The translations under genes and the position numbers were made by a program. The notes beneath the pieces are model-generated. The model did no database searches. It was not told the origin of the DNA and saw nothing but the letters and a program-made list of their open reading frames with translations. 64,000 nucleotides of DNA from an uncultured Candidatus Rokubacteria bacterium. Its GTDB lineage: Bacteria; Methylomirabilota; Methylomirabilia; Rokubacteriales; CSP1-6. The first letter of the stretch is position 1, and each line of letters opens with the position of its first letter. The DNA is taken from the NCBI GenBank assembly GCA_963840495.1, contig CAWIZN010000044.1, forward strand, positions 2,055-66,054, given 5' to 3'. This document shows, piece by piece, positions 7,204-53,715 of this stretch.

Positions 7204-7274
7204 GCTGCCTCCCGTGTGAGCAAGCGGTTTGCTGACGGATGTCGGCCGTCGGCGGCGTAGTATAACAGACCTCT

Positions 7275-13108: not shown

Positions 13109-13111
13109 AGC

Positions 13112-16587: not shown

Positions 16588-16588
16588 C

Positions 16589-19998: not shown

Positions 19999-20001
19999 CG
20001 G

Positions 20002-20676: not shown

Positions 20677-20708
20677 CGACTCGATTGCTGACATGAAGGA
20701 GACTCTCG

Positions 20709-21155
20709 ATGACGTGGCCAGTGATGCGATCTCTGGGATGGACGTTGGCGCTCGGACTTCTGATGGGCGCCGTCCTGGCGCCGACCCCTGCGGATGCCCA
20801 GGCCGACGAGCGGGTCCGGGTGTTCAATGCGCCGCTGGACCGCGTGTGGACCGTGACGCGCTCGACGCTCAAGAGCCTCGGGTGGGACATCGACAAGGAG
20901 GACCGCGAGGGCGGCTGGATCCGCACCGACTCGCGGCGCCTCGAGGGCGAGGACTTCGGCGTGTATGCCAAGGGCACGCGGCAGCGGCTGCGCGTCGCCA
21001 TGAAGGCGCTCGACCCGACCCGGACGCAGGTGACGGTCGAGCGGCGCGTCTGGAAGCAGGAGCGCATCCTGTGGATGGACAAGGAGGAGGATATCCAGGT
21101 GCCGGACCAGCTCGCCGAGAAGAAGGTCCTCGACGACATCGCCGCGGCGCTCTGA
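20709..21155 (+). CDS. Hypothetical secreted protein
   Basis: AAGGAG RBS before the ATG. Signal peptide MTWPVMRSLGWTLALGLLMGAVLAPTPADA. No family recognised. Confidence 0.55.
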   Translation: MTWPVMRSLGWTLALGLLMGAVLAPTPADAQADERVRVFNAPLDRVWTVTRSTLKSLGWDIDKEDREGGWIRTDSRRLEGEDFGVYAKGTRQRLRVAMKALDPTRTQVTVERRVWKQERILWMDKEEDIQVPDQLAEKKVLDDIAAAL

Positions 21156-21283
21156 TCCTCGGCCGGCCCAGGACGAAGGGCCCGTCGGCCACGCGCGATG
21201 CGCGGGGCCGCAGCAGTTGATGGTTGACAGTGAGGCGTGCTGCGGGAGACACTCCCGGCCGAGCCAGAATCGATGACGAGCCC

Positions 21284-22030
21284 ATGACCCAATCGACACC
21301 GCCCCACCCCGTCCTGGAGAAATACTACCCGAGCGACGCTGACCGACAGTCGTTCGTGGGTGCGCTGTTCGACGGCGCCGCCCGACACTACAACCGCATC
21401 GGCACAATGCTGGACCTGGGCTCGGGTCCCTGGTACCGCCGCTGGGCTCTTCGCCGCGCGGGCCTCCGTCCCGGGATGCGGCTGCTCGACGTCGCAACCG
21501 GCACGGGCTTGGTGGCGCGCGGCGCGGTGGGCATCCTCGGCGAACCCGGTCGGGTGATCGGCGTCGATCCGAGTCGCGGCATGCTGCGGGAAGCGCGAAA
21601 GGCGCTCGCCGGCCCCCTTGTCCAGGGCAGAGCCGAGGCGCTGCCGTTCCGCGACGACCTGTTCGACATGCTCAGCATGGGCTTCGCCTTGCGCCATGTG
21701 CCCGACCTCGAGGCGGCGTTCCGGGAGTACCGCCGCGTCTTGAAGCCGGGCGGGCGCCTGGTTCTCCTCGAGGTGTCCCGTCCACACTCGCCCGTCTCCC
21801 GCTGGCTGATCCGGGTCCATCTCCAGCACATCCTGCCCTTGATGGCGCGAATCAGCACGAGAAGCCAGCCGGCCCAGCTCCTCATGAAATATTACTGGGA
21901 CACGATCGACCGGTGTGTTCCGCCGGAGACGATCCTGGATGTCTTGCGGCGTGGTGGCTTCGTCGACGTCAACCGACGGACGCTCTTCGGATTCCTCAGC
22001 GAGTACTCGGCCGCGAAACCGTCGCCGTAG
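21284..22030 (+). CDS. Class I SAM-dependent methyltransferase (UbiE/MenG-like)
   Basis: Lies within ORF 21224..22030. Motif I is LLDVATGTGLVA, followed by FDMLSMGFALRHV and LKPGGRLVLLE. The start could be 21224 or 21284. Confidence 0.75.
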   Translation: MTQSTPPHPVLEKYYPSDADRQSFVGALFDGAARHYNRIGTMLDLGSGPWYRRWALRRAGLRPGMRLLDVATGTGLVARGAVGILGEPGRVIGVDPSRGMLREARKALAGPLVQGRAEALPFRDDLFDMLSMGFALRHVPDLEAAFREYRRVLKPGGRLVLLEVSRPHSPVSRWLIRVHLQHILPLMARISTRSQPAQLLMKYYWDTIDRCVPPETILDVLRRGGFVDVNRRTLFGFLSEYSAAKPSP

Positions 22031-22109
22031 AAGGCTGCCGGCTAGGAGCCTGTCGGAGAAGACCGGTAGAGCGAAGAGAAGGGTTCAGCTGCGCCGGTCT
22101 CGACGGGTG

Positions 22110-23882
22110 ATGGGCTCTCGCGGTTCGGGCGCCGCGGCCGCGATGGTGGCGTCGATCGCGCTCGCGCTCGTCTTGCTCCTGCCCGGTCTCGGCGCCGCGC
22201 CGTTCGACGATCCAGGGGAAGGCCAGCACGCGGAGATCGCCCGGGAGATCCGGGCGAGCGGCGACTGGCTCACGCTCAGGCTGAACGGCGTCCGCTATCT
22301 CGACAAGCCGCCCCTCCTCTACTGGCTTGCCGCGGGAGCCTTCGCGCTCTTCGGCGACGGCGAGTGGGCGGCTCGGCTCGTGCCGCTCGGGGGCGCGGTG
22401 CTCGCGGCAGCGGCGACGGCGCTCTTGGGCGCCCGCCTCCTCGGCCCCTGGGCGGGCCTCGGCGCGGCGGGCGCGCTCCTGTCGTCGGCGCTGTTCGTCG
22501 TCTTCGGCCGCTACGTGCGCCCGGAGACGCTCTTCGTCGCGGCCATTCAATGGGGCCTGGCGGGGCTCCTGCTGGGCCTGGCCGCCCCCGCGGAGAGCGG
22601 ACGGCGCCGCGTCTGGCTCCTCGTGGGCTGCGTCGGGCTCGCGCTCGCCTCGCTCGCCAAGGATCCGCTCGGGCTCATCGGCCCGCTCGGGGCCATCGCC
22701 CTGGCCCTGTCACTCGGCGGCCGACTCGCGGTCGGCGCGGCTGCCATGGGAGGGCGTGGCCGTCCTCATGATCCTGGGCTTCGGATGGTATCTCGTCGCG
22801 GCGATGCTGAGCCCCGGCTTCCTCTGGTACACGGTGGTCGACAACCACGTCCTGAACGCGCTCCGGCTGCGGCAGTTCCCCGACGAGGACGTCCCGCTCT
22901 CCTCCGCGGAGTTCCTCGCGGTGAGCGGGCTCGGCGCGTTTCCCTGGATCATCCCGGCCGGGCTCCAGGTGATCGCCCTCTGGCCGGCGGCGCGCGTGGC
23001 GCGATCCGGCGGAGACGGCGTGGGTGGCGCTCGCGCTGTGGACGACGGGACTGATCGCCCTCTTCGCGCTGTCTCCCTTCAAGCTGCCCCACTATGCGCT
23101 TCCCGCGTATCCGGCCATCGCGCTCCTCGCCGTTCGCTTCTGGAAGGAGCGCTCAGTCGGGTGGGCGGGCGCTCGTCGGCCTCCACCTGGCGCTCTTCGC
23201 CGCGCTCGCCGTCGGCGCCTTTCTCGTGGGGATGGGGGACGGCCGCGCCTTCGTGGACACCGTCTTCTCGGCGACGGATGTCTACACGCGGAAGGAGGCG
23301 GTGGTGGGCCAGGCCTCCCCGCTGCCCCCATGGTCTGCGCTCGGACCGCTGGTGACGCGCATGGCGATGATCTTCGGCGGGGGTGCGCTCGTCCTCGCGG
23401 GGGCGTTCGCGGCGCGGGCGGGGCGGCTCGGCTTCGCCGCGGTCCTCGCCACCATGCTCGCCGTGATGCCGCTCGCGACGGGGGCCGCCGCGCTCGTCGC
23501 CTCGGGGAGGGCGGTGGCGAGGATGGCCGAGGATCTCAAGCGGGAGATGGCGCCGGGCGATCTCCTCGTCCACGAGGGGCCGATCGAGAACTCCGGCGCG
23601 CTCGAGCTGTACTCGGGCCGGCGTCCTGCCCTCCTCGACGCCCGGCGAAGCGTCCTCGGCATCGGCGCCACCTATCCGGACGCGGCCGAGACGTTCTGGG
23701 ATGCGGGTGATCTGGCCCGCGCGTGGCAGTCCGGCCGCCGCGTCTTCCTCGTGACGCCGCGCGCGCCCGAGCAGAGCGCCGTCGCATCGTTGCCCCCCGG
23801 CACCGCGCATCTGCTGGAAGTCCGGAACGGCCGCTGGCTCTACAGCAACGTCGGCCGTCGGGGGCCTCAGCATGCGCGATAG
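22110..23882 (+). CDS. ArnT/PMT-family (GT39-like) membrane glycosyltransferase, three frameshifts as given
   Basis: DDPGEGQHAEIAREI..RYLDKPPLLYWL (ORF 21915..23054) is followed by FGWYLVAAMLSPGFLWYTVVDNHVLN (ORF 22327..), then ALFALSPFKLPHYALPAYPA (ORF 23024..), then the C-terminal part in ORF 23094..23882. The breaks are near 22735, 23000 and 23150. Confidence 0.7.
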
Positions 23883-23978
23883 CAATGTCGCCCGTCGGGT
23901 TGCGGGACCTTCGCGTTCTGCGCTACCGTGAGCCGGTGCATTCAACCGGTGAAGCGGTAGTGGATCAATCTGGGCTCT

Positions 23979-35265: not shown

Positions 35266-35868
35266 TTACCCCTTGGGTGCGCCCGACGCCGTGCCGCCAG
35301 CCGTCGGGGGATGAGTGCTCGGGAGGAGATAGCCAGACACGTTAAACGTCGTGAGCAGGTCGCGGGGCTGGCCGACGGCGACCACTCTAACCTTCACGTC
35401 CTGCACCGTCAAGATCTTGGTCGTGTGCTCCAGATCGTGGAGGAGGCGCACCGTCTCCCGCAGCCCTCCGGCCACGGTGATCTCGATCGGCACTTCTTGC
35501 AGGCCGCTCCGGTCGACCAGCGGGAGGATGCGCTCGCTGCGGACTTCGACGCCCGCCTTGAGGGCCACGTCCTTGACCAGCGTCTGAAGCTCGGAGGCGG
35601 CCAGCGGGGGGGTCGGGCCCTGCAGCCACCGCGGCGCCCGGGTCTGCAGCTGTTGGTTGAGCTTCTCCAATTCCGCCGTGAGGGCGGGTCGCTGAGCGAC
35701 GACGAGCCGGCGCCGCTCGAGCTGGGCCTCGCGGCTCGGAATCATCTCGGCGCCGGACTGCCGCCACTCCTGCAGCGGCTCGACCCCATAAAAATAGACG
35801 ATGAGGCCGAGGCCCACGAGCAGGGCGGCCCCGATCAGTCTTCGCTCGCGCTTGTTGATGGTCATCAT
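35266..35868 (-). CDS. gspM: Type II secretion system protein GspM (PilO-like)
   Basis: ATGATG at 35868, overlapping the gspL stop. MMTINKRERRLIGAALLVGLGLIVYFYGVEPL (single TM) plus a periplasmic domain. Its position between gspL and the gspC/D genes supports the call. Confidence 0.65.
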   Translation of the reverse strand: MMTINKRERRLIGAALLVGLGLIVYFYGVEPLQEWRQSGAEMIPSREAQLERRRLVVAQRPALTAELEKLNQQLQTRAPRWLQGPTPPLAASELQTLVKDVALKAGVEVRSERILPLVDRSGLQEVPIEITVAGGLRETVRLLHDLEHTTKILTVQDVKVRVVAVGQPRDLLTTFNVSGYLLPSTHPPTAGGTASGAPKG

Positions 35869-37295
35869 GATGTCAGCGCCCCTGCGCGGCGCCCGGGGCG
35901 CCGCCCCGCAGGCGCGGGCGGTTTGGCCCCCGCCGGTGGAGTCGGTTGAGGTGTCTCCGGTGGCGCGGCCGATTTCCACGCCGCCTTGATCCGGAACTGC
36001 TCTTTGTCTCCCGCTTTCGTCACCGGCGCCGTGAACTCGACCCGGGCCAGCGAGGGGGAGCTCTCGAGCAGCGGGATGAGCTGATTGGCGGCGGCGGCCT
36101 GACCCGTGATCTCGAGGCCCTGCTTGTCCATGCTGAAGGTGCGCAGCCACGCGTCCTGAGGCAGCCGCTCCGTCAGCTCCCGCATGATCGGCAGCGGCCG
36201 CACATCGGCCTTCTCGATGGACCGGATGGTTTCGAGCAAGCGCCTCTTCTGGGCCATCTCGGCGGACAGGCGCTCGACCGCTTTGACGTCGGGGTCGAGC
36301 TTGCGGAGGGCGTCGGAGAGCTGCGTGGCGTAGCGCTGCTGCTTGTAGCCCTGACCGACCACGAGCCCGGCCCCGAGCGCCACGGTGATGGCGACCATTG
36401 CCGCCGTGACGAGCTGACCGGAGGAGAACGTCCGGGGGCGGGTCTCGACGGGCAGAAGATTGAGCACAGGCCGCTGAGAGCCGAGCGCGACCGCGAGCGC
36501 CAACGTCGCGCGCCCCTGGTCGTCGGCGGGCAAGCCCGGCAGCATGGCTTCGACCGCCGGACTCCAGGGGGGGGCCGTCACCGAAGCGGCAAGCTGTTCC
36601 AGCGCGGGTGAGGCGAGCAGCGCGTCGGCGCCGTCACCGGACGCCCAGATCGCGTCGCACTCCGTCCAGCCGAGCAGCGAAAGCGTCGCGGCGACGTCGG
36701 CGGCGAGCGCTTCGCCGTCGCCCGCGGGGACCGTGCGGCTGAGGTGGATTCGCCGCTGGCCCAGGCAGACGAGGTCGATCGATTCGCCCGTCCGGTGCGC
36801 CCAGACCGCCGTGCGCACCTTCGACCGTCGGGCGAGCAGCGCGGGCAAGTCATGACACGCGACGGTGAGGGCGGCCGGCTTGATCCGCGGCTCCTCCAGG
36901 AGTCGAAGGGCTCCCTCCACGGTACGGCGCTCTGCGGCGACCACGAGGATCCGCACGGGGCCTTTGGCCGTGCCGGTCAGCGTCGTCCAGTCGAAGCGCA
37001 TGTCCTCCGGCGTGAACGGCACGTGACGCTCGAGCTCGAAGGCGACCATCTCGGCGAACTGGCCGCCCTCCGCGCGCGGCAGCTCGAGGGCCTTCACGGT
37101 GACGAGCGGGCGCGCCAGGCCGAGCCGGATGCGCCTCAGCCGGAGCTGACGGGCGTCCAGCTCGGTCTTGAGATGAGCGCCGGGAAGATCCTCCAGCTCC
37201 ACGGTGAAGCATTGCACCCCGCCCCGGCGGGCGACGACCGCCACCGTGAGCCGGTCGCCTCCCAGGTAGATTCCCGCCCGAACCCCCATGTTCAT
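35865..37295 (-). CDS. gspL: Type II secretion system protein GspL (actin-like cytoplasmic domain, TM and PilN-like periplasmic domain)
   Basis: ATG 37295 forms an ATGA overlap with the gspK stop. It is the last 476 aa of track ORF 35865..40496 (MNMGVRAGIYLGGDRLTVAVV...LVTAAMVAITVALGAGLVV...). Confidence 0.7.
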   Translation of the reverse strand: MNMGVRAGIYLGGDRLTVAVVARRGGVQCFTVELEDLPGAHLKTELDARQLRLRRIRLGLARPLVTVKALELPRAEGGQFAEMVAFELERHVPFTPEDMRFDWTTLTGTAKGPVRILVVAAERRTVEGALRLLEEPRIKPAALTVACHDLPALLARRSKVRTAVWAHRTGESIDLVCLGQRRIHLSRTVPAGDGEALAADVAATLSLLGWTECDAIWASGDGADALLASPALEQLAASVTAPPWSPAVEAMLPGLPADDQGRATLALAVALGSQRPVLNLLPVETRPRTFSSGQLVTAAMVAITVALGAGLVVGQGYKQQRYATQLSDALRKLDPDVKAVERLSAEMAQKRRLLETIRSIEKADVRPLPIMRELTERLPQDAWLRTFSMDKQGLEITGQAAAANQLIPLLESSPSLARVEFTAPVTKAGDKEQFRIKAAWKSAAPPETPQPTPPAGAKPPAPAGRRPGRRAGALTS

Positions 37296-38288
37296 GACTT
37301 GCCCGATTCCTTCTTCGCGGGGCTGCGCAGCGGCATGGGCCGCCAGGACACCACGGTGACCGTCGGCGGGGTGCCCGGGCCCCCGGCTGACTTCTGGACG
37401 ATCGCGACGATGCGCGCCTTGGGCTCGCCCCCCACGATCCCTTCCGCATCGATCCGGAACGTCGTGCTTCCGACGGTCACCCGGCGTCCACCGAACCGAC
37501 CCGGCACCGTCGGATAGGGGTTGTTCGTGCGCGCCTGGACGATATCGCTGATCTCGGCATCGGACAGGCCCAGTGCAGAGAGCACCGGCGCCGGCGCGGT
37601 ATTGATGTTGACGGTGCCGCGGCTGCGCGCGGTGAGCACCTCGGCGAGGGGGGGCTTGTCCTCGTGGCCCCAATACATCTCCGGCGTGATCCCCTTGACC
37701 TGGAGCAGCTCGTCGGTGTCCTGGAAGTTCCCGTTGCGGGCGCGGTAGGGGACCGGCAGCTTGAGAGTAGTCGTCGCTCTCGGCGCCATTGGTCCGCGTG
37801 GTGTCGTTCGCATCCCGCCAGTCCTCGATCGCGTCGACGATCGAGTCGCGCTCGATCTTGTCCACGCCGATCGCGGTCAAGAGCCGCTGCATGCGGTCGG
37901 CCACACCCCCGTTGACATTCAGCCGCCCCTCCTCGTCGCTGATGCGATAGGAGAAGGCGCCCGCGCCGAGCGGCACCTGGGTTCGCTCGAGCGACGGCAG
38001 CCGCTTGAGCGCGGTGCTGCCCGCCGGCACCGTGTAGAAGGCGACCTGGCCGCTTTCGTCGAGGCCGTGGACATTGGCGTCGCTCAGGATTTCCCGGATC
38101 GCCTGCTGGATCCCCGCCTCCGCGAGGTTGCGCGCGAGCACGCCGTCCCGGTAGGCGCGGACCATGCTGGCCTCGAGGCGCATCGAGAAGGCGAACTCGG
38201 TGACCACCACCGCCAAGAGCGTCATCACGAGGATCACGGCGAGCAGGGCGAAGCCGCGCTCGTCTCGCGCCAGCCGGCGCGGGCTCAT
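37292..38288 (-). CDS. gspK: Type II secretion minor pseudopilin GspK, one frameshift near 37790
   Basis: ATG 38288 forms an ATGA overlap with the gspJ stop. MSPRRLARDERGFALLAVILVMTLLAVVVTEFAFSMRLE is followed by ..ISDEEGRLNVN..DWRD. The C-part is ORF 37292..37813 (LLQVKGITPEMY..VNINTAPAPVLSALGLSDAE). Confidence 0.8.
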
Positions 38289-38902
38289 GGCGAGGTGACC
38301 CGGATGGACACGCTGACGGGCGGCTGCTCGACGGGCTGGCCGCCCACCATGGTCGTGAGGGTGACCTCGACGGCGCGGGGAACGGCGCGCTCCTGGGCTC
38401 CATCCCAGCTCTCTTCCCAGGAGCCCTCGGTGTCGCGCAGGTAGCGGAAGCGCACGGCGGTGAACGACGGATCGACGACGATCGGCGCCACGTCCTCGAA
38501 GGGGTCGTCGTTGGGCAGCGCCTTCTCGCGGATGGCCAGGCCCGGCTTGTCCCCCTCGTCGATCGACAGGGTCACGGCCGTGAAGGCGATCGGAGCGGGA
38601 AGTGGGAATGGCGCGGACACCGTCACGAACGACAGCCTGTCGGGCGCGCCCTGGAAGAGGACCTCGGGCTGGACCCCGGCAGGTGCGGGGCCGAGGTAGG
38701 CCGCCGTGCCGCCCAGCGATAGCGCGAGGAGCGCATTCAGGCTGCGCGCGTGCTGCTGTGACTCGGTGCGCTCCTCGCCGCGCTGCCAGGCGCGAACGCC
38801 GACGCGAAGGCCGCCGAAGACGATGGCCAGCATGGCCGCGACGATGGAGAGCGCCAGCACCAGCTCGAGCAGCGTGAAGCCCCGCTGACCGCGCCGCTTC
38901 AT
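38285..38902 (-). CDS. gspJ: Type II secretion minor pseudopilin GspJ
   Basis: ATG 38902 inside ORF 38285..39148. The prepilin leader is MKRRGQRG/FTLLELVLALSIVAAML. Confidence 0.75.
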   Translation of the reverse strand: MKRRGQRGFTLLELVLALSIVAAMLAIVFGGLRVGVRAWQRGEERTESQQHARSLNALLALSLGGTAAYLGPAPAGVQPEVLFQGAPDRLSFVTVSAPFPLPAPIAFTAVTLSIDEGDKPGLAIREKALPNDDPFEDVAPIVVDPSFTAVRFRYLRDTEGSWEESWDGAQERAVPRAVEVTLTTMVGGQPVEQPPVSVSIRVTSP

Positions 38903-39491
38903 CGCGCGGGTGTCCGTGTGGTGCCGCTGCCGGAGCTGCTGCTCGTGCCGAACGGCCCGGTCTGGCTCCGGCCCGGTGTCGCCGGAGCTGCCCGAACCGG
39001 CGGCGCCCCCCGGAATCGCCCCGCCCTGGCCGCGTCTGCCCTTGCTGGTCGGCGGGGTTGGTCGCGGGCACGGTGGCCGGACCGGTCGGCGCGCGCAGCG
39101 TGGCCACCTCCACCATGTGGTTGCGGCCCCATCGCACGGCCACCGCAACCGCGTAGAGGCCGGGCACTTCCTTGCCGGGGACGGGCGTCTTGGGCTCCAG
39201 CTCCTCCGGCAGCGCGATTCGGGTCACCCGGCGCTCCCAGGCGAAGGCACCCTCTTCGCCGGTCTCGACCGTGGCCTCGCTCGTCACCTCCTCCGCGTTG
39301 ACCTGGGTATCCCTGGCGAGCCGGTCTGCGATCTGCACGGCCTGCTGGTGATCGCCGGACACCTTGAGGAGCCGCAGGCCCTGGGAGGTGAGCTCGATCA
39401 GGCTGACCACGCCCACCGCGAGGATGGTGAAGGCGATGAGCACTTCGAGCAGCGTGAAGCCGCCGCGGTCACCGAGGGTGCCACGCGCCAT
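38899..39491 (-). CDS. gspI: Type II secretion minor pseudopilin GspI; 3' end uncertain (probable frameshift in low-complexity tail)
   Basis: ATG 39491 overlaps the gspH TGA. The leader is MARGTLGDRGG/FTLLEVLIAFTILAVGVVSL. The only stop that gives the usual ATGA junction with gspJ (38899-38902) is in another frame (ORF 38899..39132). Confidence 0.65.
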
Positions 39492-39955
39492 CAGGAATCG
39501 GCCAGGCGGCTCGACACGCGCCCGGTCAGGGGATCGACGGTCACGAGGTAGTGGCGATTCCCAGGGGCGAGGATGCGGTACGTGGCCCCGTTCGAGAACC
39601 CGAGCGGGGCGAACGTGACCGCCAGGGCCTCCGGCGGATCCGACTCGATGCGCATCAGGTACGTGAAGGTCCGCGAGGATCGCACGGCGTCCGAGCCCGC
39701 GGCCGTGATCACGAGCGAGCGCGTCTCGGGATCGAGGCGCACGGACTGGGCTTCGCCGCGCGTGATGGCTTGCTCGCGCGCGGCCCGAAGGTAGGCCGCG
39801 AAGCCCGAGATCTCCGCGCGCGCGCGCACGCTCCCGATGCTCCTGCCGATGCCGGGTACGACCACCGCCGCCGCGAGCGAGAGGACCAGCAGCGTCACCG
39901 CCAGCTCGATCAGCGTGAACCCGCGTGACCACTGGGTCATTGCTTCGCCCATCAC
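39491..39955 (-). CDS. gspH: Type II secretion minor pseudopilin GspH
   Basis: 154-aa ORF with leader ..MTQWSRG/FTLIELAVTLLVLSLAAAVVVPG and a GspH-like body (ISGFAAYLRAAREQAITRG). Confidence 0.75.
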   Translation of the reverse strand: MMGEAMTQWSRGFTLIELAVTLLVLSLAAAVVVPGIGRSIGSVRARAEISGFAAYLRAAREQAITRGEAQSVRLDPETRSLVITAAGSDAVRSSRTFTYLMRIESDPPEALAVTFAPLGFSNGATYRILAPGNRHYLVTVDPLTGRVSSRLADS

Positions 39956-39959
39956 TGCC

Positions 39960-40043
39960 CTCGCCTCGCAGCCCGCTGCTCAGCTCGCTCAGACCTCGGG
40001 CTGCCAGGCGCTCGCGCCTCGTCTCGCTCGCAACTTGCCCCAG
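39960..40043. repeat. Repeat family B, partial copy in the gspG-gspH junction
   Basis: The reverse complement CTGGGGCAAGTTGCGAGCGAGACGAGGCGCGAGCGCCTGGCAGCCCGAGGTCTGAGCG aligns with 9749-9810. Confidence 0.65.
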
Positions 40044-40058
40044 AGCGGCTGCCAGCGT

Positions 40059-40496
40059 CCACGAAGCGATGTCGGCGCTCTCCCCCTCGCCGCCGGGCTT
40101 GCCGTCCGCGCCGTCGCTCCAGAGATCGTACTCTCCGTGGTCCCCGGGACAGCACTTGTACTGATAGGGATTGCCCCAGGGATCGGCGGGGATGACGTTC
40201 TTCTTGAGATACGGGCCGTTCCAGGCGGCGATGTTCGGATTCCGCACGAGCGCTTCGAGGCCGACCGACGAGGGTGGATAGGTGCCCACGTCGAGGCTGT
40301 ACTGATCGAGGGCGGCGCCCAGGAGCTCGATCTGCGCGCGGGCGGCCACCATCTTGGACTGCCCGACACGGCCGAACAGCCGTGGGCCGACCAGGCCGGC
40401 GAGCAGGCCGAGAATGATCACGACCACGATCATCTCGATGAGGGTGAAGCCGCGATGGTCTTTCCAGACCCTCGCGAGCAGACGGGCGCGGGTCAT
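40059..40496 (-). CDS. gspG: Type II secretion major pseudopilin GspG (conserved core; no in-frame stop as given)
   Basis: ATG 40496 forms an ATGA overlap with the gspF stop. MTRARLLARVWKDHRG/FTLIEMIVVVIILGLLAGLVGP..DPWGNPYQY..DLWSDGADGKPGGEGESADIASW. The frame then runs on through the repeat and the downstream genes (track ORF 35865..40496). Confidence 0.8.
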
Positions 40497-43427: not shown

Positions 43428-43666
43428 AACAGGTGGATTATGCGCGCCGCCCCAGAGGGCGTCAAGAAACGGGAGACCGAACGCCGGCCAGCCGGTGTGC
43501 CGGTGCCCGGCCGCTTGCCCTGAGGCGCGCGGTCGTCTATTCTTCTCCAGCCCAATGTCTCGGGAAGACCGGCGATCGCGACCGGCCTCTGCAGTCCCGG
43601 GTCAGGCGGGGCGATGGCGGGTTAACCAGACCAGCAGGCTCGGATCGGGGGTCTTTCCGAAACCGA

Positions 43667-44407
43667 ATGAGCACCACGCAGTGCGCCGATCTGCACACCG
43701 CCCTCCTGGCGGCCTCGAGCGCGGTCCTGCGCCGTCGCTGGGCGGCCGGGCTGGAGGGCTGGCCTGCTCCCGTCGAAGCCGCTGACCGCGTCGAGCTCGA
43801 GGAGCGCATGCTCGCGAATCGTCCCGCCGTCGTCTTTCTGGACCTGGCGCTGCCGGGCCTCAGCGGCCTGGACGGCGTGCCGGACATCCAGCGGCTGAAT
43901 CCCGGCGCGCGACTCGTCCTGCTGGCCTCGTCCCCGAGTGAGCGGCAAGCCGTGTTCGCCCTGGTGGCGGGCGCCCGAGGCTACTGCGATCGAAACATCG
44001 CCCCCTCGCAGGTCAAGAAGGCCGTCGAGGTCGTGCAGCGGGGCGAGATCTGGATCGGCCGGCACGTCGTGCCGCACCTGCTCCGGCGGATCACCTCGCT
44101 GACCCCGGCCGGTCCGGACGCGGGGCCGGGAGGGCGCTTGCCGAGGAGGTTCGACTTCCTCGCCCCGCGCGAGCGCGAGATCGCGCTCCTCGTGGGCTCG
44201 GGAGCGAACAACCGAGAGATTGCGGAGCGGCTCAGCATCACCGAGTCGACGGTGAAGGCGCATCTCACCTCCGTCTTCCGCAAGCTCGACGTCCCGGACC
44301 GGCTGCGCCTGGCTCTCTTCGTGCGGCGTCAGCGAGCGCCGACGGCCGCTCGCCGCGCTCCGTCGCGGGCGCCGCGCCGGTCGACCTCGCGCCCGGCCGA
44401 CGCGTGA
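43667..44407 (+). CDS. NarL/LuxR-family response regulator with atypical receiver domain, divergent from gspE
   Basis: ATG 43667 inside ORF 43433..44407. ALLAASSAVL (no acidic pair), VFLDLALPG, LVLLASS, ALVAGARGY (Lys position is Val), GEIWIGRH. The LuxR HTH is APREREIALLVGSGANNREIAERLSITESTVKAHL. Confidence 0.75.
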   Translation: MSTTQCADLHTALLAASSAVLRRRWAAGLEGWPAPVEAADRVELEERMLANRPAVVFLDLALPGLSGLDGVPDIQRLNPGARLVLLASSPSERQAVFALVAGARGYCDRNIAPSQVKKAVEVVQRGEIWIGRHVVPHLLRRITSLTPAGPDAGPGGRLPRRFDFLAPREREIALLVGSGANNREIAERLSITESTVKAHLTSVFRKLDVPDRLRLALFVRRQRAPTAARRAPSRAPRRSTSRPADA

Positions 44408-44949: not shown

Positions 44950-45166
44950 GCCAACATCGCGAGCGCGGCCACGGGCACCAGGCTCAAGAGCAACCAGGCG
45001 AGCGCCGGCAGCAACGAGGAGAACGGCCTGGCCGAGTCCCGACTGAACGCCATGGCGACCAACGGCGGCGGCAACAAGGGGGACAACAAGCGCATTCCGG
45101 CGGTCGAGCATTCCGGCGGCGGGGAAGTGTCCGACGTTTCCGAACGCGGGGACGGTCGGCGAGTAG
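44950..45166 (+). pseudogene. Orphan 3' remnant of a third beta-helix protein gene copy
   Basis: Aligns with 47950-48161 of copy 1 (..LNAMATNGGGNKGDNKRIP.. against ..LNAAVTNGGGNKADKLSIP..; the ends are GTVGE-TAG against GTVCE-TAG). It is followed by the same spacer, AGCGAGCGATCGCTGGCAGG. No upstream gene body is present. Confidence 0.65.
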
Positions 45167-45216
45167 GCGCGGAGAGAAAGAGCGAGCGATCGCTGGCAGG
45201 GAGTTCGTCCAAAGCA

Positions 45217-45251
45217 CCCGGGGAGCCCCGAAGAGATGGGGGCTTCCCGGG
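45217..45251 (+). promoter_or_regulatory. Conserved stem-loop in the spacer/leader before beta-helix gene copy 1
   Basis: CCCGGGGAGCCCC-GAAGAGAT-GGGGGCTTCCCGGG lies about 25 nt upstream of the AAGGGAGA RBS and ATG 45276. The same structure occurs at 48206-48240. Confidence 0.55.
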
Positions 45252-45275
45252 TTATCCGTCGAAAGGGAGACCAAC

Positions 45276-48161
45276 ATGGAACGACTCAGGCAGATCGTGG
45301 GGAAGGTAGGGCCAGCAGCGGGGGTCGTCCTGGCGCTGCTCCTGGTACTGGGGGCGTCGACGAGGGCCCTGGCGGCGACCGATCCAGGGTGCACGGTGCT
45401 GAACGGGGATGACGCCAGCGGGACGTGCGTGCTCACGGGTGTCGGTGACGATTGCCGGGACGGTGACGGTGCATGAGCCGGTGCACATGATGCCGGCGGC
45501 GTCCAGCATCATCGTGGCGGCGGCCCGGCGGGCGGCCTCACGCTGAACATCACGGGCGATTTTGTGATGGAGAGCGGGAGCCTGATCGACGGCAACGCGC
45601 CGTGCGTGGGGACCGCGACGATCGGGCGCAAGATCACGGTGGCTGTGACGGGGGGGAACGTCGATGTGAAGACGGGCGCGACCATCCGTTCGAACTCGTG
45701 TATGGGTGGGTTCATCGAGATCACCACGGCGGCGCCGGGGACGATCAACATCGACGGGACGGTCGAGTCGGTGGGCAGCAACACGGGCGGCTCGCCGGGG
45801 AACCAGCCGGCGGGCGGCGGGCCGATCACGATCAAGGCCGGCTGCGACCTCATCGATCAGTGATACGGGGGTGGTGAGCAGCCTGGGGTCGGATCCCGGG
45901 CGCCGACCTGGTGCACCTGGAGGGCTGCATCGTGACCGTCTTTGGGTTAGTGCAGTCGACGGGGCCGGGGCACTCGATTCCGAACAACCCGCCCAATAGC
46001 TGTTCGAATGTGACGCCGCTGTCCCCGCGCCGCAATCCGGTGACGCGGCCGGGCAAGCCGCTGAACTCGACGGGGTGCGTGGAGATCTGGTCGGGGACCA
46101 CGGTGTTGATTGACAGCACGGGCACACACAAGGGCGAGGTCAACGCCGACATTGGCTTCCAGGGTGGGGCCCAGGGGCGGGGGTGGATCGATATCCTCGC
46201 CAACGGGAACATCGAGATCCGGGACGGAACCGGGAACGACCACAACAAGGTGTGCGGTGGCGCTCTGGTGCCGACCACCTTTGCGGTGCACGCCAATGGG
46301 GGGCTGTGCCAGAACGAGGACGACGGCGGGTTGATTCTGATCCAGACGTATCTGGGGGATGTCATCGCCAGCGGTAACGCCATCCAGGCCGACGCGATCA
46401 CGCAGGGGCTCAGCAGCGGCGGAGAGATTCGCGTCGAAGCGCAGAGCGACATCAACTTCAGCCCGCTCAACCTCCCGGGCGCCAACATCTTCGCCCGGGG
46501 CGATTTCACTGCGCAGGAGGGTTCGGGTCCGGGGGCCAGATCGGGCCGACGATCTCGTCGGAGCCGCTGCCGCTCACCAATCCGGCGCCGATCCGGGCGT
46601 TCACCGGGTCGCTGACCTGGACGGCGGGGATCGGCGACGCGAGGCCGGTTGGGGGCCCGTTCCCGTCGCCCAGTGGGGGGAGATCAACCTGCAGGCGTGC
46701 ACTGCCGTGAACACGGTGGGCGCTTGGCGTTCCCGACCGAACGGGGCCACCGGGCTGGCGTATCCGAACGTGCTCCCCGTGGGGACGTGCGTTGGCGCCC
46801 CGACAAAGCCGGCCTAGTGTGGCGGGCTTTCCGTCGGGGACGTGCATCACGCTGTGCGGGCCGCCACCGCGGGCAACAAGAGTGGCGTGAAGTTCAACGA
46901 CCTGAACAAGAACGGGATCAGGGACGCGGGCGAGCCCGGGCTGGCCGGCTGGGAGATCCACGTATTCAACAATGCGGTCCCTCCCGTTCCACGCGCACAC
47001 GTCACGAACGCGGCCGGCGAGTATTCTTTCACCCTGGCGCCGGGGACCTACACGGTGTGCGAGACGCAGAAGACGGGGTGGACACAGACGGCCCCGTGCG
47101 TCCCGGGATCCCAGCCACCTGTGTCGGCTCGCCGATTCCGCTGGGCGAGACGATTGCGAACTGCACGACGCACACTGAAGGGGCTGGCGGCGCCGCATCA
47201 CTCCGGGGCCCCGCGGCTATACCTTCACCATCGTCGGCGCCGAGGCGAAGAATGGACAACGACTTCGGCAACTTCACGACTCCGGTGGTGTGCCCCGAGG
47301 ATCTGCCCCGGGCGCGCGATGCTGACCAGAGTCGTGGATGAGACGGGCGCGGCCCACGGAGGGCTTCCCGTGCACACGACAGTGCAAGCCGCATACAACG
47401 CGGCGCTCGCGAGCGGTAACCCGAACGAAGTCATCGGCCTGTTCAGCAAGACGACGGAAAATGTCGTGCTCGATGGCAGCAAGAACCTGACAATCACCCA
47501 GTGCACGAACGCGCGGGTCACCGCGGCAGACAGCAACTCGCCGGCGTGGACCATCAGCGGCAGTGGGAAGCTCTTGATCATCGGCCCTGACGCTGTCGGC
47601 GGCACGGTCGGCTGGCTGATCCAGAGCAGTGGGCACGAGGTGAAGAGCCTTCGGGCCAGCGGAGCCAGCGTGGCCGGCATCCAGGTCACCGGCAACAACA
47701 ACAAGGTGGGCTGGAACTCGTCGAACAGCAACGCCGTCGGCATCAGCGTGTCGGGTGACCTCAACACACTCAAGGGCAGCGAGGTAAAATTGAACTCCGG
47801 CGTCGGCGTGCATCTGACGGCCTCGGCCAACAACAACACGCTCAGCGTCACCAAGGTCTTCGAGAACGGCGACGACGGCATTCGCGTGGACGGAAGCAAC
47901 AACACCCTGAGCAGCACCAAGGTCTACCAGAACCTCGGCGACGGCGTCGAGATCAACGGTGCGGGCAATACGCTGAAGAGCGTCGAGAGCAACATCGGGA
48001 ACCCGGATAGTGCGACCGAGAACGGCGGTGCCGAATTCAGGCTCAATGCGGCCGTGACCAACGGCGGCGGCAACAAGGCGGACAAACTGAGCATTCCGTC
48101 GGCGGGAAAGTGCGGGATACTCCCGAACATATTCCCGCTCCTGGGCACGGTCTGCGAGTAG
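45276..48161 (+). CDS. Large secreted beta-helix protein, copy 1 (Cys-containing beta-helix N-part, SdrD-B/Cna-B-like module, PbH1 parallel beta-helix repeats); multiple frame breaks as given
   Basis: Signal peptide MERLRQIVGKVGPAAGVVLALLLVLGASTRALA. The pieces are ORFs 45276..45476, 45564..45863, 45911..46615, 46359..46817 and 46842..48161. The SdrD-B-like module is VKFNDLNKNGIRDAGEPGLAGWEIHVFNN..GEYSFTLAPGTYTVCETQKTGWTQTAP. The PbH1-like repeats include NNNKVGWNSSNSNAVGISVSGDLNTLKG... The A and B parts join into one ORF when copy 2 is used as a guide. Confidence 0.65.
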
Positions 48162-48205
48162 GCACGGAAGAGCGAGCGATCGCTGGCAGGTAGTTCGTCC
48201 AGACG

Positions 48206-48240
48206 CCCGGGGAGCCCCGAAGAGATGGGGGCTTCCCGGG
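48206..48240 (+). promoter_or_regulatory. Conserved stem-loop before beta-helix gene copy 2
   Basis: Same sequence as 45217-45251, and the same distance to the RBS and ATG 48267. Confidence 0.55.
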
Positions 48241-48266
48241 TCTCACCCGTCGAAAGGGAGACCAAC

Positions 48267-51200
48267 ATGGAAGGACTCAGGCAGCTCGTGGGGAAGGTAG
48301 GGCCAGCCGCGGGGGTCGTCCTGGCGCTGCTCCTGGTACTGGGGGCGTCGACGAGGGCCCTGGCGGCGACCGATCAAGGGTGCACGGATCTGCTCGGGGA
48401 TGACGCCAGCGGGACGTGCGTGCTCACGGTGTCGGTGACGATTGCCGGGACGGTGACGGTGAATGAGCCGGTGCACATGATGCCCGGCTCCAGCATCATC
48501 GTGGCGGCGGCACCGGCGGGCGGCCTCACGCTGAACATCACGGGCGATTTTGTGATGGAGAGCGGGAGCCTGATCGACGGCAACGCGCCGTGCGTGGGGA
48601 CCGCGACGATCGGGCGCAAGATCACGGTGGCTGTGACGGGGGGAACGTCGATGTGAAGACCGGCGCGACCATCCGTTCCAACTCGTGTATGGGTGGCTTC
48701 ATCGAGATCACCACGGCGGCGCCGGGGACGATCAACATCGACGGGACGGTCGAGTCGGTGGGCAGCAACACGGGCGGCTCGCCGGGGAACCAGCCGGCGG
48801 GCGGCGGGCCGATCACGATCAAGGCCGGCTGCGACCTCATGATCAGTGATACGGGGGTGGTGAGCAGCCGGGGTCGGATCCGGGCGCCGACCTGGTGCAC
48901 CTGGAGGGCTGCGTCGTGACCGTCTTTGGGTTAGTGCAGTCGACGGGGCCGGGGCACTCGATTCCGAACAACCCGCCCAATAGCTGTTCGAATGTGACGC
49001 CGCTGTCCCCGCGCCGCAACCCGGTGACGCGGCCGGGCAAGCCGCTGAACTCGACGGGGTGCGTGGAGATCTGGTCGGGGACCACGGTGTTGATTGACAG
49101 CACGGGCACACACAAGGGCGAGGTCAACGCCGACATTGGCTTCCAGGGTGGGGCCGACGGGGCGGGGGTGGATCGATATCCTCGCCAACGGGAACATCGA
49201 GATCCGGGACGGGCCGGGAACGACCGCAACAAGGTGTGCGGTGGCGCTCTGGTGCCGACCACCTTTGCGGTGCACGCCAATGGCGGGCTGTGCCAGAACG
49301 AGGACGACGGGGGGTTGATTCTGATCCAGACGTATCGTGGGGGATGTCATCGCCAGCGGTGACGCCATCCAGGCCGACGCGATCACGCAGGGGCTCAGCA
49401 GCGGCGGAGAGATTCGCGTCGAAGCGCAGAGCGACATCAACTTCAGCCCGCTCAACCTCCCGGGCGCCAACATTTTCGCCCGCGGCGATTTCACTCGCAG
49501 CGAGGCTTCGGGTCCGGGGGCCAGATCGGGCCGACGATCTCGTCGGAGCCGCCGCCGCTCGCCAGTCTGGCGCCGATCCGGGCGTTCAACGGCGCGCTGA
49601 CCTGGACGGCGGGGATCGGCGACGCGAGGCCGGTGGGGCGACCGTCCCGCTCGCCCAGTGGGGGGAGATCAACCTGCAGGCGTGCACTGCGTGTGAGCAC
49701 GGTGGGCGCCGCGTTCCCGACGAACGGGGCCCACCGTCGCTGGCCGTATCCGAACGTTCTCGCGCTGCGGACGTGCGTCGGCGCCCCGACAAAGCCGGCC
49801 TATGCTGTGACGGGCTTCCCGTCGGGGACGTGCATCACGCTGTGCGTGGCCGCCACCGCCGGGCAACAAGAGTGGCGTGAAGTTCAACGACCTGAACCAG
49901 AACGGGACGAAGGACGCGGGGCGAGCCCGGGCTGGCCGGCTGGGAGATCCACGTATTCAACAATGGCGAGTCCCTCGCCGTGCCACGCGCACACGGTAAC
50001 GAACGCGGCCGGCGGGTATCTACTTTCACCCTGGCGCCGGGGACCTACACGGTGTGCGAGACGCAGACAGGCGGGGTGGACACAGACGGCCCCGTGCGTC
50101 GACGGCGGACCCCAGCGACCGTGCCGGCCGCCGATTCCGCCGGGGAGACGCATGGCCAACTGCACGGGGCACACTAGGGGCTGGCGGCGCCGTCATCACG
50201 CCGGGGCCCCGCGGCTATACCTTCACCATCGTCGGCACCGAGGCTGCTGATGAACAACGACTTCGGCAACTTCGCACTGCCAGGCTGTGCCCGAAGTTCC
50301 CCGGCCTGGTCCCGACCACGACGGTGACGCTCGATCCGTCGAAGCGCGAACCAGATCCAGACGGTGATCGACAATGCCGTCGACCAATGACGTCATTCTG
50401 CTCATGCCGCTCAACGGCACGAAGAGCGAGAACATCGTCGATCAACAAGAAGATCCAGCTCATCGGGTGCAGCGTCACGCTGACCGCAGCCGATGCCGGC
50501 TCTCCCGTCGTCACGATCACCTCGGGCGCGAACGGGGGGCTGACCAAGGACGTGCACGCGACCGGCAGCGCGGTGGCTGGCTACAAGATCGAGGGCTCCA
50601 GCCACACGATCCAGAACGTTCGCTCCTTCGGCAACGCGATCGGCTTCTGGATCACGGGAAACTCCAACTCGCTGAAGGGCACGCTCGGCACGACCAACAA
50701 CGGCACCGGCTTCAAGATCGATGGCAACGGCAATATGCTCGACACGAACAACGGCGTCAGCGAACAACACCGGCGACGGCGTCGTGATCAGCGGGCGGCA
50801 GCCTGAACATGGTGAAGAAGTTCACGGTCAAGGGCAACGGCGGCAACGGCATCAAGGTCGAGGCCGGGGCGGCCAACACCACGCTGTCCGAGAACAAGGC
50901 CTACTCGAATGGCCTGAACGGCTACCTGATCCTCGGGACGAACACGCCGATGTCGAAGAACATCGCCGGTGATATCGGGACCGGGAACGCGGGGGACGGC
51001 ATCCGGGTCGTTGGAAACGGCGGCGCGATCTCGGAAAATACAGCCAAGTCGAACAGCCTCGTCGGCATCCGGGTGACGGGGACCACGCACACGCTGACGA
51101 AGAACAAGAGCGGTGGCACGGCGAACCAGAACAACAGCTCCTGCCAGTACGTCGTGGGCGCGTCGAACAGCAACGGCGGCTCGAACACGTCGAGCAACAG

Positions 51201-51274
51201 CGCGACCTTCACATTCACCGCTGCCGGCGCGCAACTCGCCGGCGGGCTGCGTGCCGGCCCCGCCGACACCGTAG
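48267..51274 (+). CDS. Large secreted beta-helix protein, copy 2 (5' ~2 kb near-identical to copy 1, 3' ~1 kb divergent); multiple frame breaks as given
   Basis: ATG 48267 inside ORF 48225..48656 (MEGLRQLVGKVGPAAGVVLALLLVLGASTRALA). The pieces are ORFs 48590.., 48895.., 49633.., 50054..50806 and 50809..51489. The PbH1-like repeats include GNSNSLKGTLGTTNNGTGFKIDGNGNML and NGGNGIKVEAGAANTTLSENKAYSNG. The likely true stop is TAG 51272-51274 (..AGCVPAPPTP), just before the terminator; ORF 50809..51489 otherwise reads through the hairpin. Confidence 0.6.
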
Positions 51275-51301
51275 GCGCGGATGGTGGCGTAGGCGCAGGG
51301 T

Positions 51302-51335
51302 CAAAGGGGCGGCGGGGAGATCCGCCGCCCCTTTG
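51302..51335. terminator. Bidirectional intrinsic-terminator-like hairpin between convergent genes
   Basis: Perfect 14-bp stem CAAAGGGGCGGCGG / CCGCCGCCCCTTTG with loop GGAGAT, followed by TTG on the plus strand. Confidence 0.7.
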
Positions 51336-51422
51336 TTGGGGTCCGCAGACGTGGCGGGACTTCCGCCACTCGCCCGGTGCGCGTGTCGCCGCCGACAAAC
51401 GCGCGGCCCTGACAGTCGCCGC

Positions 51423-53715
51423 TTACTGCGCCGTCGACGGTGAAGTTATCGGTCCGGTGAGAGGCGGCGGTCGAGCCGGCGACCTTTGACTTGATCGGTA
51501 GCCGACACTGCCAGGTCGTGAAGCTCGGATTGCTCGACCGAGGCCTACGTCATGCCGTCGATGCGGACGTCAGAGGCTGCCGCTCGCCTGGCAGGAGAGC
51601 GTGGAGAAGGCGTTCACGGCGGGATTCGGGATCCCGGCGGACTTGAGAAGGTCTCCACGCCGTTCTGGACCTTGGCGATCCGAAGGGCGCTCGACCCGCC
51701 GGTCTGCCGGTAGCACACGTAGTAGTTCTGGGGGTTCTGGTAGCGCAGCACCACGCCGAAGCGCGGCGAGGTATTGTTATTGGTCGAGGCGAAGCTGGCC
51801 GCCACCATCTGCGTCGCGCCCGCCAGGCCGGGCTGGACGGCCAGGCTGAACGGCTGGTCGGCTGTGTTGCGGGCCTCCCCGGACTGGATCATGCAGGCTT
51901 CCTGTCACCACCGACCAGCCATTGCCCAGCACGGCGCGAATCGGGCCGATCGAAGTTGTCCGTGAACGTCCCCGGTGTTCCGCGTCCGGCGCCAGCCGAG
52001 GCGACGTTGTAGAGCATGGGGGCCGAGTCGGAGAGCGTCGAGTCCGTGGTGCTGGTCGCGGCGCCGACGATGGTGTAGGACCCGGCCGGCACGGTCGGGG
52101 GACGTGATCTGCAGGGTCGTGGAGGCCGTCGCGCCGGGGATCATGGTGACGCTGGAGGCGCCGAAGCTCTTCTGCCAGCCGTGGGGGAGCCGTCGCTTGG
52201 AGCGCGAAGGTGGAGGCGGAGCATCCGGCGCTGTCGGTATTGGTGACGGAGACGTTGTACGTCACGGCGGTTCCGGACTGGACGTCGGGGCTCTGGCCTG
52301 GCGAGGCGGTGACGGTCGGCGCCGACCGGGTGCACGAGCGGCGCCCCATGTCGACCATGATCGTGGCGCTGGTGCTGCTCACCGACAGCGTCGTGATCGT
52401 GACGCCCGAGACCGGGTCCGTGAAGCTCTTGCCCACGTCCAGGAACGCGTCATCCGAGAGGGGAGACGTCGCCGGGGTCATGTCGAGAAGGTAGCTGCTG
52501 TCGGTCGGTGTCGGTGGCCAAGTGGAGAAGACGCCGGTCCGGAACAGATAGGTGTCCCAGCCCACATTGCGCCGGAACTCGACGAAGAACGACTGGCCGG
52601 TCGTGCCGCGAGGGATTGCAGGGCTTTGGGGCCCGCGCCGGGAAATTCGTAGGCGTCGATGGTGTAGGTCGCCGCTGGTCAGCACCGTCGTGATGGGCGG
52701 GGACACGTTGTAGTCGAGCCAGCCCGAGACGCTGCTTCTGGAAGGCGTTGTAGTGGCCGGTGCCGCCGCCCATGGTGTCGGTGGTATCGCCGTACTCGAC
52801 GATGGAGCAGGGCGGGGTCACGACGCTGGGGTGACAGTTGAGCGCGTGCGAATGATAGAGCCCGAAGGTGTGGCCGAACTCATGGGCGAAGGTGCCCGTG
52901 TCGTACTGGCCGTTGATCCACACGCTCGACGGGTTGCCGCCGACCGTCGCCAGGCCCGCGAACTGGCAGGCGGCAGTTGAACGGGAAGACGATAGACGTG
53001 GCGCACGTACGTCGAGAGGTTGACGCCGGCGGCGGTCGCGGCTTGTCGCGCGTAGGTCTTGATAGTGGCGTAGTCGCAGCAGGCGTTGGTGATCGGCATC
53101 GTGTACCAGCCGACGACGTCGATGGCGAGCGACGTCTGCTGGTACGAGACTTCTCGGAAGAAGTCGTCGAGTCACCGCCATACGCCCGTTTCGCCTGGGC
53201 GACAGTGTAGGGCTGGGACGGATCGTTCGAGAAGTTCACGAGGATCACCAGGGTCTTCTGCGAGCCAAACGTGTTCGGCGGTGGCGGCGGCCAAGACCTC
53301 GAGACGCCGGTGGAGCTGGACTCGGTGCCGCTCGCCTGCTTCAAGAGCATGGCGGTCTGCGGACCGGCGGCCTCTGGTGCGGACGAGGTCCCCGGTCAGC
53401 AGGTCCTGGCCAACGTCATGCCGTCCAGCGACAGCCGCGTTCCGTCGCGGGTCAACAGGATATGGTGATATCGGCTGCTGCCGTCGATCCCGGTCCTCGT
53501 GCATGATTTCCAGCGTCCCTCCACGTCGACCTCGACTCACCGGCGGGCTTGGCACTCGGCGCGGTGGTCGTGGGGGTGGTCGAGCGCAGTGCTTCATGGG
53601 CAAAGACCGCGCGGCTCGGCAGGAGGACAGGCGCAAACAGGGTCAGGGCGGCGACGGCGCCAATCTGCAAGCCGGCGCAAAGCCGGCGAGTGCTACTCCA
53701 TGGGCGTGGGAACAT
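51423..53715 (-). CDS. Secreted zinc metallopeptidase (HEXXH; gametolysin/M11-like by eye) with C-terminal LamG/jelly-roll-like module; at least five frame breaks as given, 3' end approximate
   Basis: The signal peptide is in ORF 53452..53715 (MFPRPWSSTRRLCAGLQIGAVAALTLFAPVLLPSRAVFA). KTLVILVNFSNDPSQPYT is in ORF 52880... The catalytic motif GTFAHEFGHTFGLYHSH is in ORF 52450..53181. The middle part is in ORF 51777..52706, and the C-module is in ORFs 51889..52092 and 51614..51892. Confidence 0.6.

Follow-up and report, generated by a model that had tools for sequence, protein, structure and literature searches.

How can two adjacent genes be nearly identical over their first ~2.0 kb and so different beyond it? 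The question is raised by a tandem pair of genes for predicted secreted beta-helix proteins, copy A (45276-48161) and copy B (48267-51274), both on the forward strand of a 64,000-nt stretch of contig CAWIZN010000044.1 (positions 2,055 to 66,054; assembly GCA_963840495.1) from an uncultured Candidatus Rokubacteria bacterium; this stretch is hereafter called the window, and its coordinates are used throughout. The answer that we consider likely is that the two copies form an old pair of one A-type and one B-type gene, whose 5' module has been homogenised by gene conversion and/or unequal crossing-over, and that the many frameshifts found in both are mostly assembly error.

The repeat is real and far beyond chance. 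A repeat search of the window returned 16 repeat families with a start-to-start spacing of 2984-2999 nt, i.e., a direct repeat with a period of ~3 kb, and local alignment pairs 45019-47295 with 48018-50292. From the spacer in front of each gene to the junction at which similarity ends (~2.1 kb), copies A and B differ by 75 substitutions and 59 gapped columns over 2,160 alignment columns, corresponding to ~96% identity at aligned bases; the gaps represent 51 indel events, along which the offset between the copies drifts between 2983 and 3001. The original prediction, which had 45181-47285 and 48171-50275 aligning base for base, was therefore right about the repeat and wrong about the exactness of the match. 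The repeat also starts earlier than the predicted 45181, since the alignment begins already at 45019 and takes in the coding end of the gene in front (~150 nt, 72-97% identical depending on the block). A ~105-nt spacer inside the repeat is 88-97% identical, and the repeated part as a whole spans the spacer, a hairpin, the ribosome-binding site (RBS), the signal peptide, the N-terminal module and the SdrD_B domain.

The 3' end of the repeat is sharp. A profile in 150-nt blocks shows 90-99% identity between A and B up to the motif GACTTCGGCAACTTC, encoding D-F-G-N-F, and 56-70% past it, which is the background level for global alignment of GC-rich DNA. The motif has exactly two occurrences, at 47261-47275 and 50259-50273, against a chance expectation of 0. 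The profile is not uniform along the gene, and similarity collapses straight after the shared motif as predicted; the PbH1-containing C-terminal parts, also predicted to differ, are only 29% identical at the amino-acid (aa) level.

Each copy accordingly consists of a shared N-module and a C-module of its own. The N-module of copy A (45276-47275) comprises a signal peptide, an N-terminal beta-helix without a Pfam model and an SdrD_B domain, ends at DFGNF and carries at least 12 frameshifts; the A-type C-module that follows (47276-48161) is a PbH1/Beta_helix region with the tail …GGNKADKLSIPSAGKC…GTVCE before the stop codon. The N-module of copy B (48267-50273), likewise with at least 12 frameshifts, precedes a B-type C-module (50274-51274), a PbH1 beta-helix ending in …FTAAGAQ.PAGCVPAPPTP and a stop codon.

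Neither copy is an intact open reading frame (ORF) of the ~900-1000 codons expected of the family described below. Three-frame translation shows the coding signal switching frames in both, and tblastn with the intact homologs P0001 and P0010 matches copy A successively in frames 3, 1, 2, 1 and 3, and copy B in frames 3, 2, 1 and onwards. A frameshift-aware dynamic programme based on codon usage needed at least 12 corrections to repair copy A, all of them before 47316, from where a single open frame without frameshift runs to the stop codon (ORF 46842-48161), and at least 18 to repair copy B, in which ten 1-base insertions fall within ~150 nt of the SdrD_B region (49965-50106) and the C-module has six net +1 insertions relative to an intact, 85%-identical ortholog at locus L001 (loci of other assemblies are given as L numbers, and homologous proteins as P numbers). 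The repaired products, of ~961 aa (A) and ~1001 aa (B), both show a Sec-type signal peptide, a ~500-residue N-terminal region without a Pfam model, an SdrD_B domain and a C-terminal Beta_helix/PbH1 region. Against a gathering cutoff of 29.7 bits, SdrD_B (PF17210) reaches 39.3 bits in repaired A and only 23.2 bits in repaired B, the low score being due to the ten insertions in that very domain; Beta_helix (PF13229, cutoff 25.9 bits) reaches 34.0 bits in A and 33.9 bits in B, in the C-module in both cases. At ~960-1000 codons the genes are not the giant ones first described, and the reading of their differences as only scattered substitutions and indels had missed that the indels break both frames and that similar frameshifts occur window-wide.

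Repaired copy A finds 248 homologs, the best of which is 55% identical over 96% of the query (E 3.5e-279), and the intact homologs are 880-1010 aa long. Sixteen sequences align colinearly from the signal peptide to a C-terminal …CE, with 130 invariant columns, ~15 conserved cysteines and the motifs GGGPITIKAGC, GADLVHLEGC, STGCVEIW, FAVHANGG and GNDFGN. By these sequence comparisons, the repaired copies A and B are full-length members of an uncharacterised double beta-helix family of ~950 aa (P0001-P0120). NCBIfam has no model for the family beyond the generic beta-helix repeat, and a literature search on the domain combination found nothing relevant. A profile search against 1.84 billion representatives gave 49,739 matches at E<=0.001, mostly giant proteins with many SdrD_B repeats, and was uninformative on family size.

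Comparison with these relatives shows that the two halves of the genes have different histories. The N-modules of A and B are 96-97% identical in nucleotides and 84% in amino acids after imperfect repair, as opposed to 62-64% aa identity of either with either gene of L001; over this bounded segment, the paralogs within the genome are closer to each other than to orthologs in other genomes. N-module identity between paralogs within a genome amounts to 100% in L008, and to 70% between gene 1 and gene 2 of L001. The C-modules, in contrast, group by type across genomes: the B-type C-module of the window reaches 80-81% aa identity with its counterpart in gene 2 of L001 and ~74% with the one in gene 2 of L009, and the A-type C-module shares 43-52% aa identity with its counterparts in L001, L002, L003, L004, L005 and L008, as compared with the 29% between A and B themselves.

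The position at which these histories part is also shared. The paralogs of L008, from a Solirubrobacterales metagenome-assembled genome (MAG), have 3 mismatches in a 2,240-nt tract that opens two bases ahead of the ATG and closes exactly at …GGGAACGACTTTGGGAAC (GNDFGN), beyond which they diverge, and paralog similarity in L001 and L009 also stops within ~10-20 nt of DFGN; in total, four loci have their tract end at this DFGN junction. When the window is compared with L001, synonymous divergence (dS) is 0.40 in the B-type C-module, as against 0.68-0.80 in the N-modules; values for the ratio of nonsynonymous to synonymous divergence (dN/dS) are inflated by imperfect frame repair and serve for comparison only. 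The higher N-module dS fits N-modules that one paralog has passed to the other in either lineage or in both. Homogenisation of the 5' part by recurrent duplication or gene conversion, as originally predicted, is thus supported both by N-module identities within versus between genomes and by the shared end at DFGN. The accompanying claim that the C-terminal beta-helix diversifies is not supported, since each C-module is an old conserved type and, in aa identity as in dS, the B-type C-module is more conserved between genomes than the N-module.

From this pattern of identities, we infer conversion as the mechanism. It would act on a two-gene array, one A-type and one B-type, placed downstream of a LuxR-type response regulator and, in this lineage, beside an operon for a type II secretion system (T2SS). 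Recombination between the tandem paralogs would hold the first ~2.0 kb and the upstream spacer nearly identical, and the tract would stop at DFGN because the C-modules beyond it, at 29% aa identity, are too different to recombine.

Partial gene conversion drives concerted evolution of tandem and dispersed paralogs, such as bacterial tufA/tufB and mosaic outer-surface gene families, and the mechanism is in this sense already known, being ordinary concerted evolution of tandem paralogs. As in those cases, one segment is closer among the copies of a genome than among orthologs of different genomes, with a sharp boundary and old divergence elsewhere. Unlike in those cases, the homogenised segment of the window corresponds to a whole two-domain module together with its upstream spacer, its boundary is a module junction that recurs in distant lineages, and the protein family is an uncharacterised one. 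If the proposed history is true, the locus would represent a clean case of segment-limited concerted evolution, with two old C-modules kept apart and a breakpoint recurring in distant bacteria.

A tandem array of this kind might also be a product of assembly, either through head-to-tail joining of two strain variants of one gene or through a mis-resolved repeat. No part of the window is noisier than this region, assemblers have difficulty with near-identical repeats of 2 kb, and the collections searched contain no independent assembly of a close relative: scans of genome and metagenome contigs for a close relative or the same species gave nothing above 55% aa identity. An artefactual duplication is nonetheless extremely unlikely. 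The order of A-type gene, B-type gene and M11 peptidase gene seen in the window recurs in L001 and L009, which are independent assemblies, family genes commonly stand in tandem arrays of 2-4 copies (L003, L004, L008 and L021), and strain variants of a single gene would not have C-modules with only 29% identity.

Immediately upstream of copy A lies a further trace of the family. The original prediction of a third 3' end with the same stop context and spacer and no gene body is confirmed by an orphan remnant at 44962-45166 (forward strand), which corresponds to the last ~68 codons of an A-type gene, with a TAG stop at 45164-45166 and one frameshift near 45136. It encodes …ATGTRLKSNQ…NGGGNKGDNKRIPA… and, past the frameshift, GKCPTFPNAGTVGE followed by the stop, fits the A-type C-terminal consensus of the family (GGNKAD..IP…KCPTFPAxGTxCE), and, block by block, matches the tail of copy A with 72-97% nucleotide identity. 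In tblastn searches of the window, no similarity to the family appears 5' of the orphan, and the intact homologs detect two full family genes only, plus this one tail remnant, in the 64 kb. A displaced A-type tail is also present in L001 (5943-6060; GKCPTFPNAGTVCE and a stop codon), where it lies between genes 1 and 2, directly after the stop of gene 1 and before a conserved hairpin spacer, and is nearly identical to the tail of the window orphan; tail remnants therefore recur in the family. Gene 1 of L001 itself ends in another tail (…KRYATGCYE), which suggests a past replacement of its 3' end.

The orphan of the window is, we infer, what is left of a third copy, of A-type. If the N-modules of an array composed of A0 and B underwent unequal crossover, the outcome would be A0, A and B, with tail and spacer duplicated, and a later deletion of the body of A0 would leave the 68-codon tail.

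Displaced A-type tails in both the window (44962-45166) and L001, a break in similarity at the same short motif in four loci of different lineages, and the presence of at least 2-3 C-terminal types and tail variants in the family could also be taken as signs of a C-terminus exchange system, in which a constant N-module is joined at DFGN to alternative C-modules and displaced tails are left behind. Such an arrangement would recall CdiA-CT and Rhs/YD proteins, which likewise combine a constant body with alternative C-termini at a short motif (VENN or PxxxxDPxGL there, DFGN here) and have displaced C-terminal remnants adjoining full genes. Several features set the present locus apart. Its C-modules are PbH1 beta-helices that belong to two main types only, conserved across genomes and not hypervariable, and they contain no toxin domain; instead of an immunity gene or other small ORF, they are followed by a 105-109 nt hairpin spacer and the next paralog, or by a terminator. 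The remnant also differs from the orphans of CdiA and Rhs loci in lying upstream of the genes, in spanning 68 codons only and in having no complete alternative C-terminus: from ~44962 onwards it contains no DFGN junction motif and covers the conserved tail, not the variable region, and since junction and variable region are missing it is not a donor cassette for module exchange. Nor does the locus combine an expression site with promoterless cassettes in the manner of pilE/pilS, vlsE or msp2. A boundary at DFGN is, moreover, expected anyway where nucleotide homology ends. An exchange system is for these reasons very unlikely, and the suggested layout of orphan cassettes or antigenic variation is not borne out by a single upstream tail next to which there is neither an immunity-like ORF nor an array of silent copies. 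A related idea, put forward by analogy and quite unlikely, is that the family evolves in a modular way as a non-toxin analogue of CdiA/Rhs, in which a fast, lineage-specific N-module would be kept identical among copies, conserved C-modules would be swapped at DFGN, and a LuxR-type regulator would be dedicated to the system.

The concerted evolution of an intact pair, as preferred here, requires an explanation for the broken frames. The frameshifts, and probably most of the scattered substitutions too, are probably consensus errors of an error-prone assembly, both genes being intact in the organism; this reading follows from the occurrence of shifts outside the repeat as well, a spectrum unlike natural mutation, the +1 insertions in copy B and similar noise in L009. 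Intact orthologs from L002 span frame changes in GspE (~42738), GspF (~40916) and GspK (~37766), with 69-92% similarity on both sides, and in the GspD secretin (32576, 32808 and 33509), an FGGY kinase (~10457 and 10551), a PMT-like glycosyltransferase (22740-23168) and the M11 peptidase, predicted shifts are bridged by Pfam domains; the shifts given here with coordinates are single-base. Indels between A and B are 1 bp long in 46 cases out of 51, and 6 of the 51 lie in homopolymers of 3 or more. Transitions and transversions number 31 and 44 (a ratio of 0.7), C<->G being the commonest class, and the substitutions are distributed 19:13:20 over codon positions 1, 2 and 3. The corresponding genes of L009 are noisy in a similar way, with 108 gap opens between the paralogs over 2 kb; the Microflora Danica long-read catalogue named in the title of L009 is Nanopore-only, with Flye assembly and one round of Medaka polishing (PMC12313526).

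Two biological sources of frameshifts were considered and rejected: slipped-strand phase variation, given that homopolymers of 3 or more contain only 6 of the 51 indels, and programmed frameshifting, given dozens of shifts per gene.

A third possibility is that the frameshifts are real and mark a secretion island (T2SS, beta-helix cargo and M11 peptidase) decaying to pseudogenes, with the cargo hit first and hardest and the copies drifting neutrally since the last conversion. This would agree with the heavy disruption of copies A, B and the M11 gene and with the 1-3 frameshifts in each of GspD, GspE, GspF and GspK, as well as with A/B substitutions that show no codon-position bias (dN/dS ~0.8) and with indel and substitution densities that co-vary along the gene; dead copies are also found elsewhere in the family, gene 2 of L001 being split and a third copy in L004 containing an in-frame stop. 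It is harder to reconcile with shifts in unrelated genes far from the island (the FGGY kinase and the PMT-like transferase), with indels of which 90% are 1 bp and most lie outside homopolymers, with an indel:substitution ratio of ~0.7, a transition/transversion ratio of 0.7 and a predominance of C<->G changes, and with +1 insertions that come in runs, one every 10-25 nt. Apart from their shifts, the broken T2SS genes show 69-92% aa identity to intact orthologs, with clean similarity around each break. Decay of the whole island is unlikely.

The third copy of L004 (Acidobacteriota MAG, 15768-17378) is itself likely a genuine pseudogene, its stop lying inside the GADLVHLEGC motif (…DP, stop codon, ANLVSLTGGC).

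Several observations weigh against the account of a homogenised pair obscured by assembly error. Frameshift density is very uneven, with ~1/165 nt in copy B, the M11 gene and the 5' part of copy A, and ~1/2 kb elsewhere, the final 846 nt of copy A being free of shifts; the error density in 45.2-53.4 kb is ~tenfold higher. Uniform low coverage would not give this, and the error reading has to suppose something more, for example that polishing failed in repeated or strain-variable DNA, which would explain the unevenness. Substitution and indel densities both climb towards the junction, as real divergence would also produce, and sequencing error is deduced from the spectrum of mutations. Tandem N-modules in L003 and L004 are only 37-47% aa identical, meaning that conversion is not universal in the family, and linkage to the T2SS is seen in the window and L002 only. 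With an error-prone assembly, claims on this locus that rest on reading frame or on dN/dS are unsafe before re-sequencing.

The array has a conserved partner at its 5' side. Directly upstream lies a gene for a LuxR/NarL-type response regulator (43433-44404, forward strand; Pfam Response_reg and GerE), whose true start is probably at ~43760 and which is 60% identical to the regulator preceding the single family gene of L002. A homologous regulator is found directly 5' of family genes in nine loci (L002, L003, L004, L005, L010, L012, L013, L014 and L027), whose titles name Acidobacteriota, Thermoanaerobaculia, Nitrospiria and Methylomirabilis MAGs.

The wider surroundings of the window are those of L002, where an 838-kb contig shows, in order, a T2SS operon from GspE to GspM on the reverse strand, the LuxR-type regulator, the family gene P0010 and a DsbA-like gene. 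The flanks of the window correspond to these, with ~69-92% identity for the T2SS proteins and 80% for DsbA, and the interval from regulator to DsbA holds the orphan, copies A and B, the M11 peptidase gene and further genes, placing the DsbA gene ~10 kb 3' of the array, as compared with immediately downstream of the family gene in L002. The M11 gene (51570-53359, reverse strand) is convergent with copy B and encodes a gametolysin-like zinc metallopeptidase with the motif HEFGHTFGLYH and an NPCBM_assoc domain; it contains ~11 frameshifts, through which the Pfam Peptidase_M11 match continues, and its orthologs 3' of the gene pair are intact in L001 and fragmented in L009.

A first indication of what the family does comes from an AlphaFold2 model of the syntenic relative P0010 (predicted local distance difference test, pLDDT, of 88), in which two right-handed beta-helices are predicted on either side of an SdrD_B/CnaB-type domain. 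Foldseek searches with this model returned the B domains of SdrD and UafA as top matches, the A-module of the mannuronan epimerase AlgE4 (TMt, the TM-score normalised to target length, 0.55-0.59; E 1e-5), and further matches to PL6 alginate lyases and phage tailspikes. Together with the Beta_helix/NosD Pfam matches in the C-module, the predicted fold of P0010 relates the family to the AlgE4 A-module, AlgG, PL6 lyases and NosD-like CASH proteins; sequence identity to AlgE4 and PL6 enzymes is only 9-15%, so that the modelled likeness applies at the fold level alone. Unlike those carbohydrate-active beta-helices, the family has an N-terminal beta-helix of ~500 residues with motifs of its own (GADLVHLEGC and GGGPITIKAGC) and no Pfam or NCBIfam model. 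The likeness to the CnaB-type B domain of SdrD and UafA, seen in the SdrD_B score of 39.3 bits for repaired A as well as in the top Foldseek matches, is also partial: the SdrD_B domain of the window is single and forms a linker between two beta-helices in a Sec/T2SS context, unlike the repeated domains of an LPXTG-anchored stalk.

On the strength of this model, the family proteins are probably secreted and would bind or modify polysaccharide. Circumstantial features of the sequence, namely the Sec-type signal peptide, the ~15 conserved cysteines and the neighbouring T2SS and DsbA genes of the window and of L002, would make them candidate T2SS substrates. The large and widespread secreted double beta-helix family flagged here, with a conserved regulator partner and, in this lineage, T2SS/DsbA surroundings, offers a starting point for the study of its function.

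The intergenic regions contain several conserved signals. Spacer 1 (45167-45275) and spacer 2 (48162-48266), both on the forward strand, align with each other and share the RBS AAGGGAG and a hairpin with a 14-bp, GC-rich stem (45216-45252 and 48205-48241), which is kept in L001 and L009; the fold energy of spacer 1 is -50.2 kcal/mol (z = -3.1). On the 5' side of the hairpin, both spacers also carry the 10-bp palindrome AGCGATCGCT (45183-45192 and 48173-48182), which could be an operator for the adjacent LuxR-type regulator. A different, terminator-like hairpin follows copy B (51302-51335, forward strand), with a 15-bp stem and then UUUGUU; the fold energy of the region 51268-51345 is -43.2 kcal/mol. 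A scan of 44.3-51.7 kb for sigma-70 promoters found nothing above chance (1 site, with 0.5 expected).

A few minor observations concern other genes. In L008, giant genes flanking the tandem pair (5991-8538 and 18664-23945) carry long arrays of ~330-nt tandem repeats with 93-98% identity. Within the T2SS operon of the window, a 1543-aa ORF on the reverse strand (35865-40496) contains T2SSG, T2SSK and PilN domains in one frame; its interpretation as a fused T2SS gene was rejected, since GspG to GspL proper are encoded in alternating frames and the open frame crosses separate genes, a result of high GC content and of frameshifts, the latter accounting for part of its length. Beyond the M11 gene, the segment 53400-56000 has a weak coding signal and lower GC content (63%), with a Methyltransf_24 gene on the reverse strand at ~54.3-55.1 kb, and may be foreign DNA or noisier sequence. 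Finally, 13100-19000 on the forward strand holds a ketoacyl synthase cluster with an acyl carrier protein (ACP)-like ORF and a 744-aa ORF joining ketoacyl-synthase and GT2 glycosyltransferase domains, which may be a true fusion or may have arisen artificially, through a frameshift or the loss of a stop codon.

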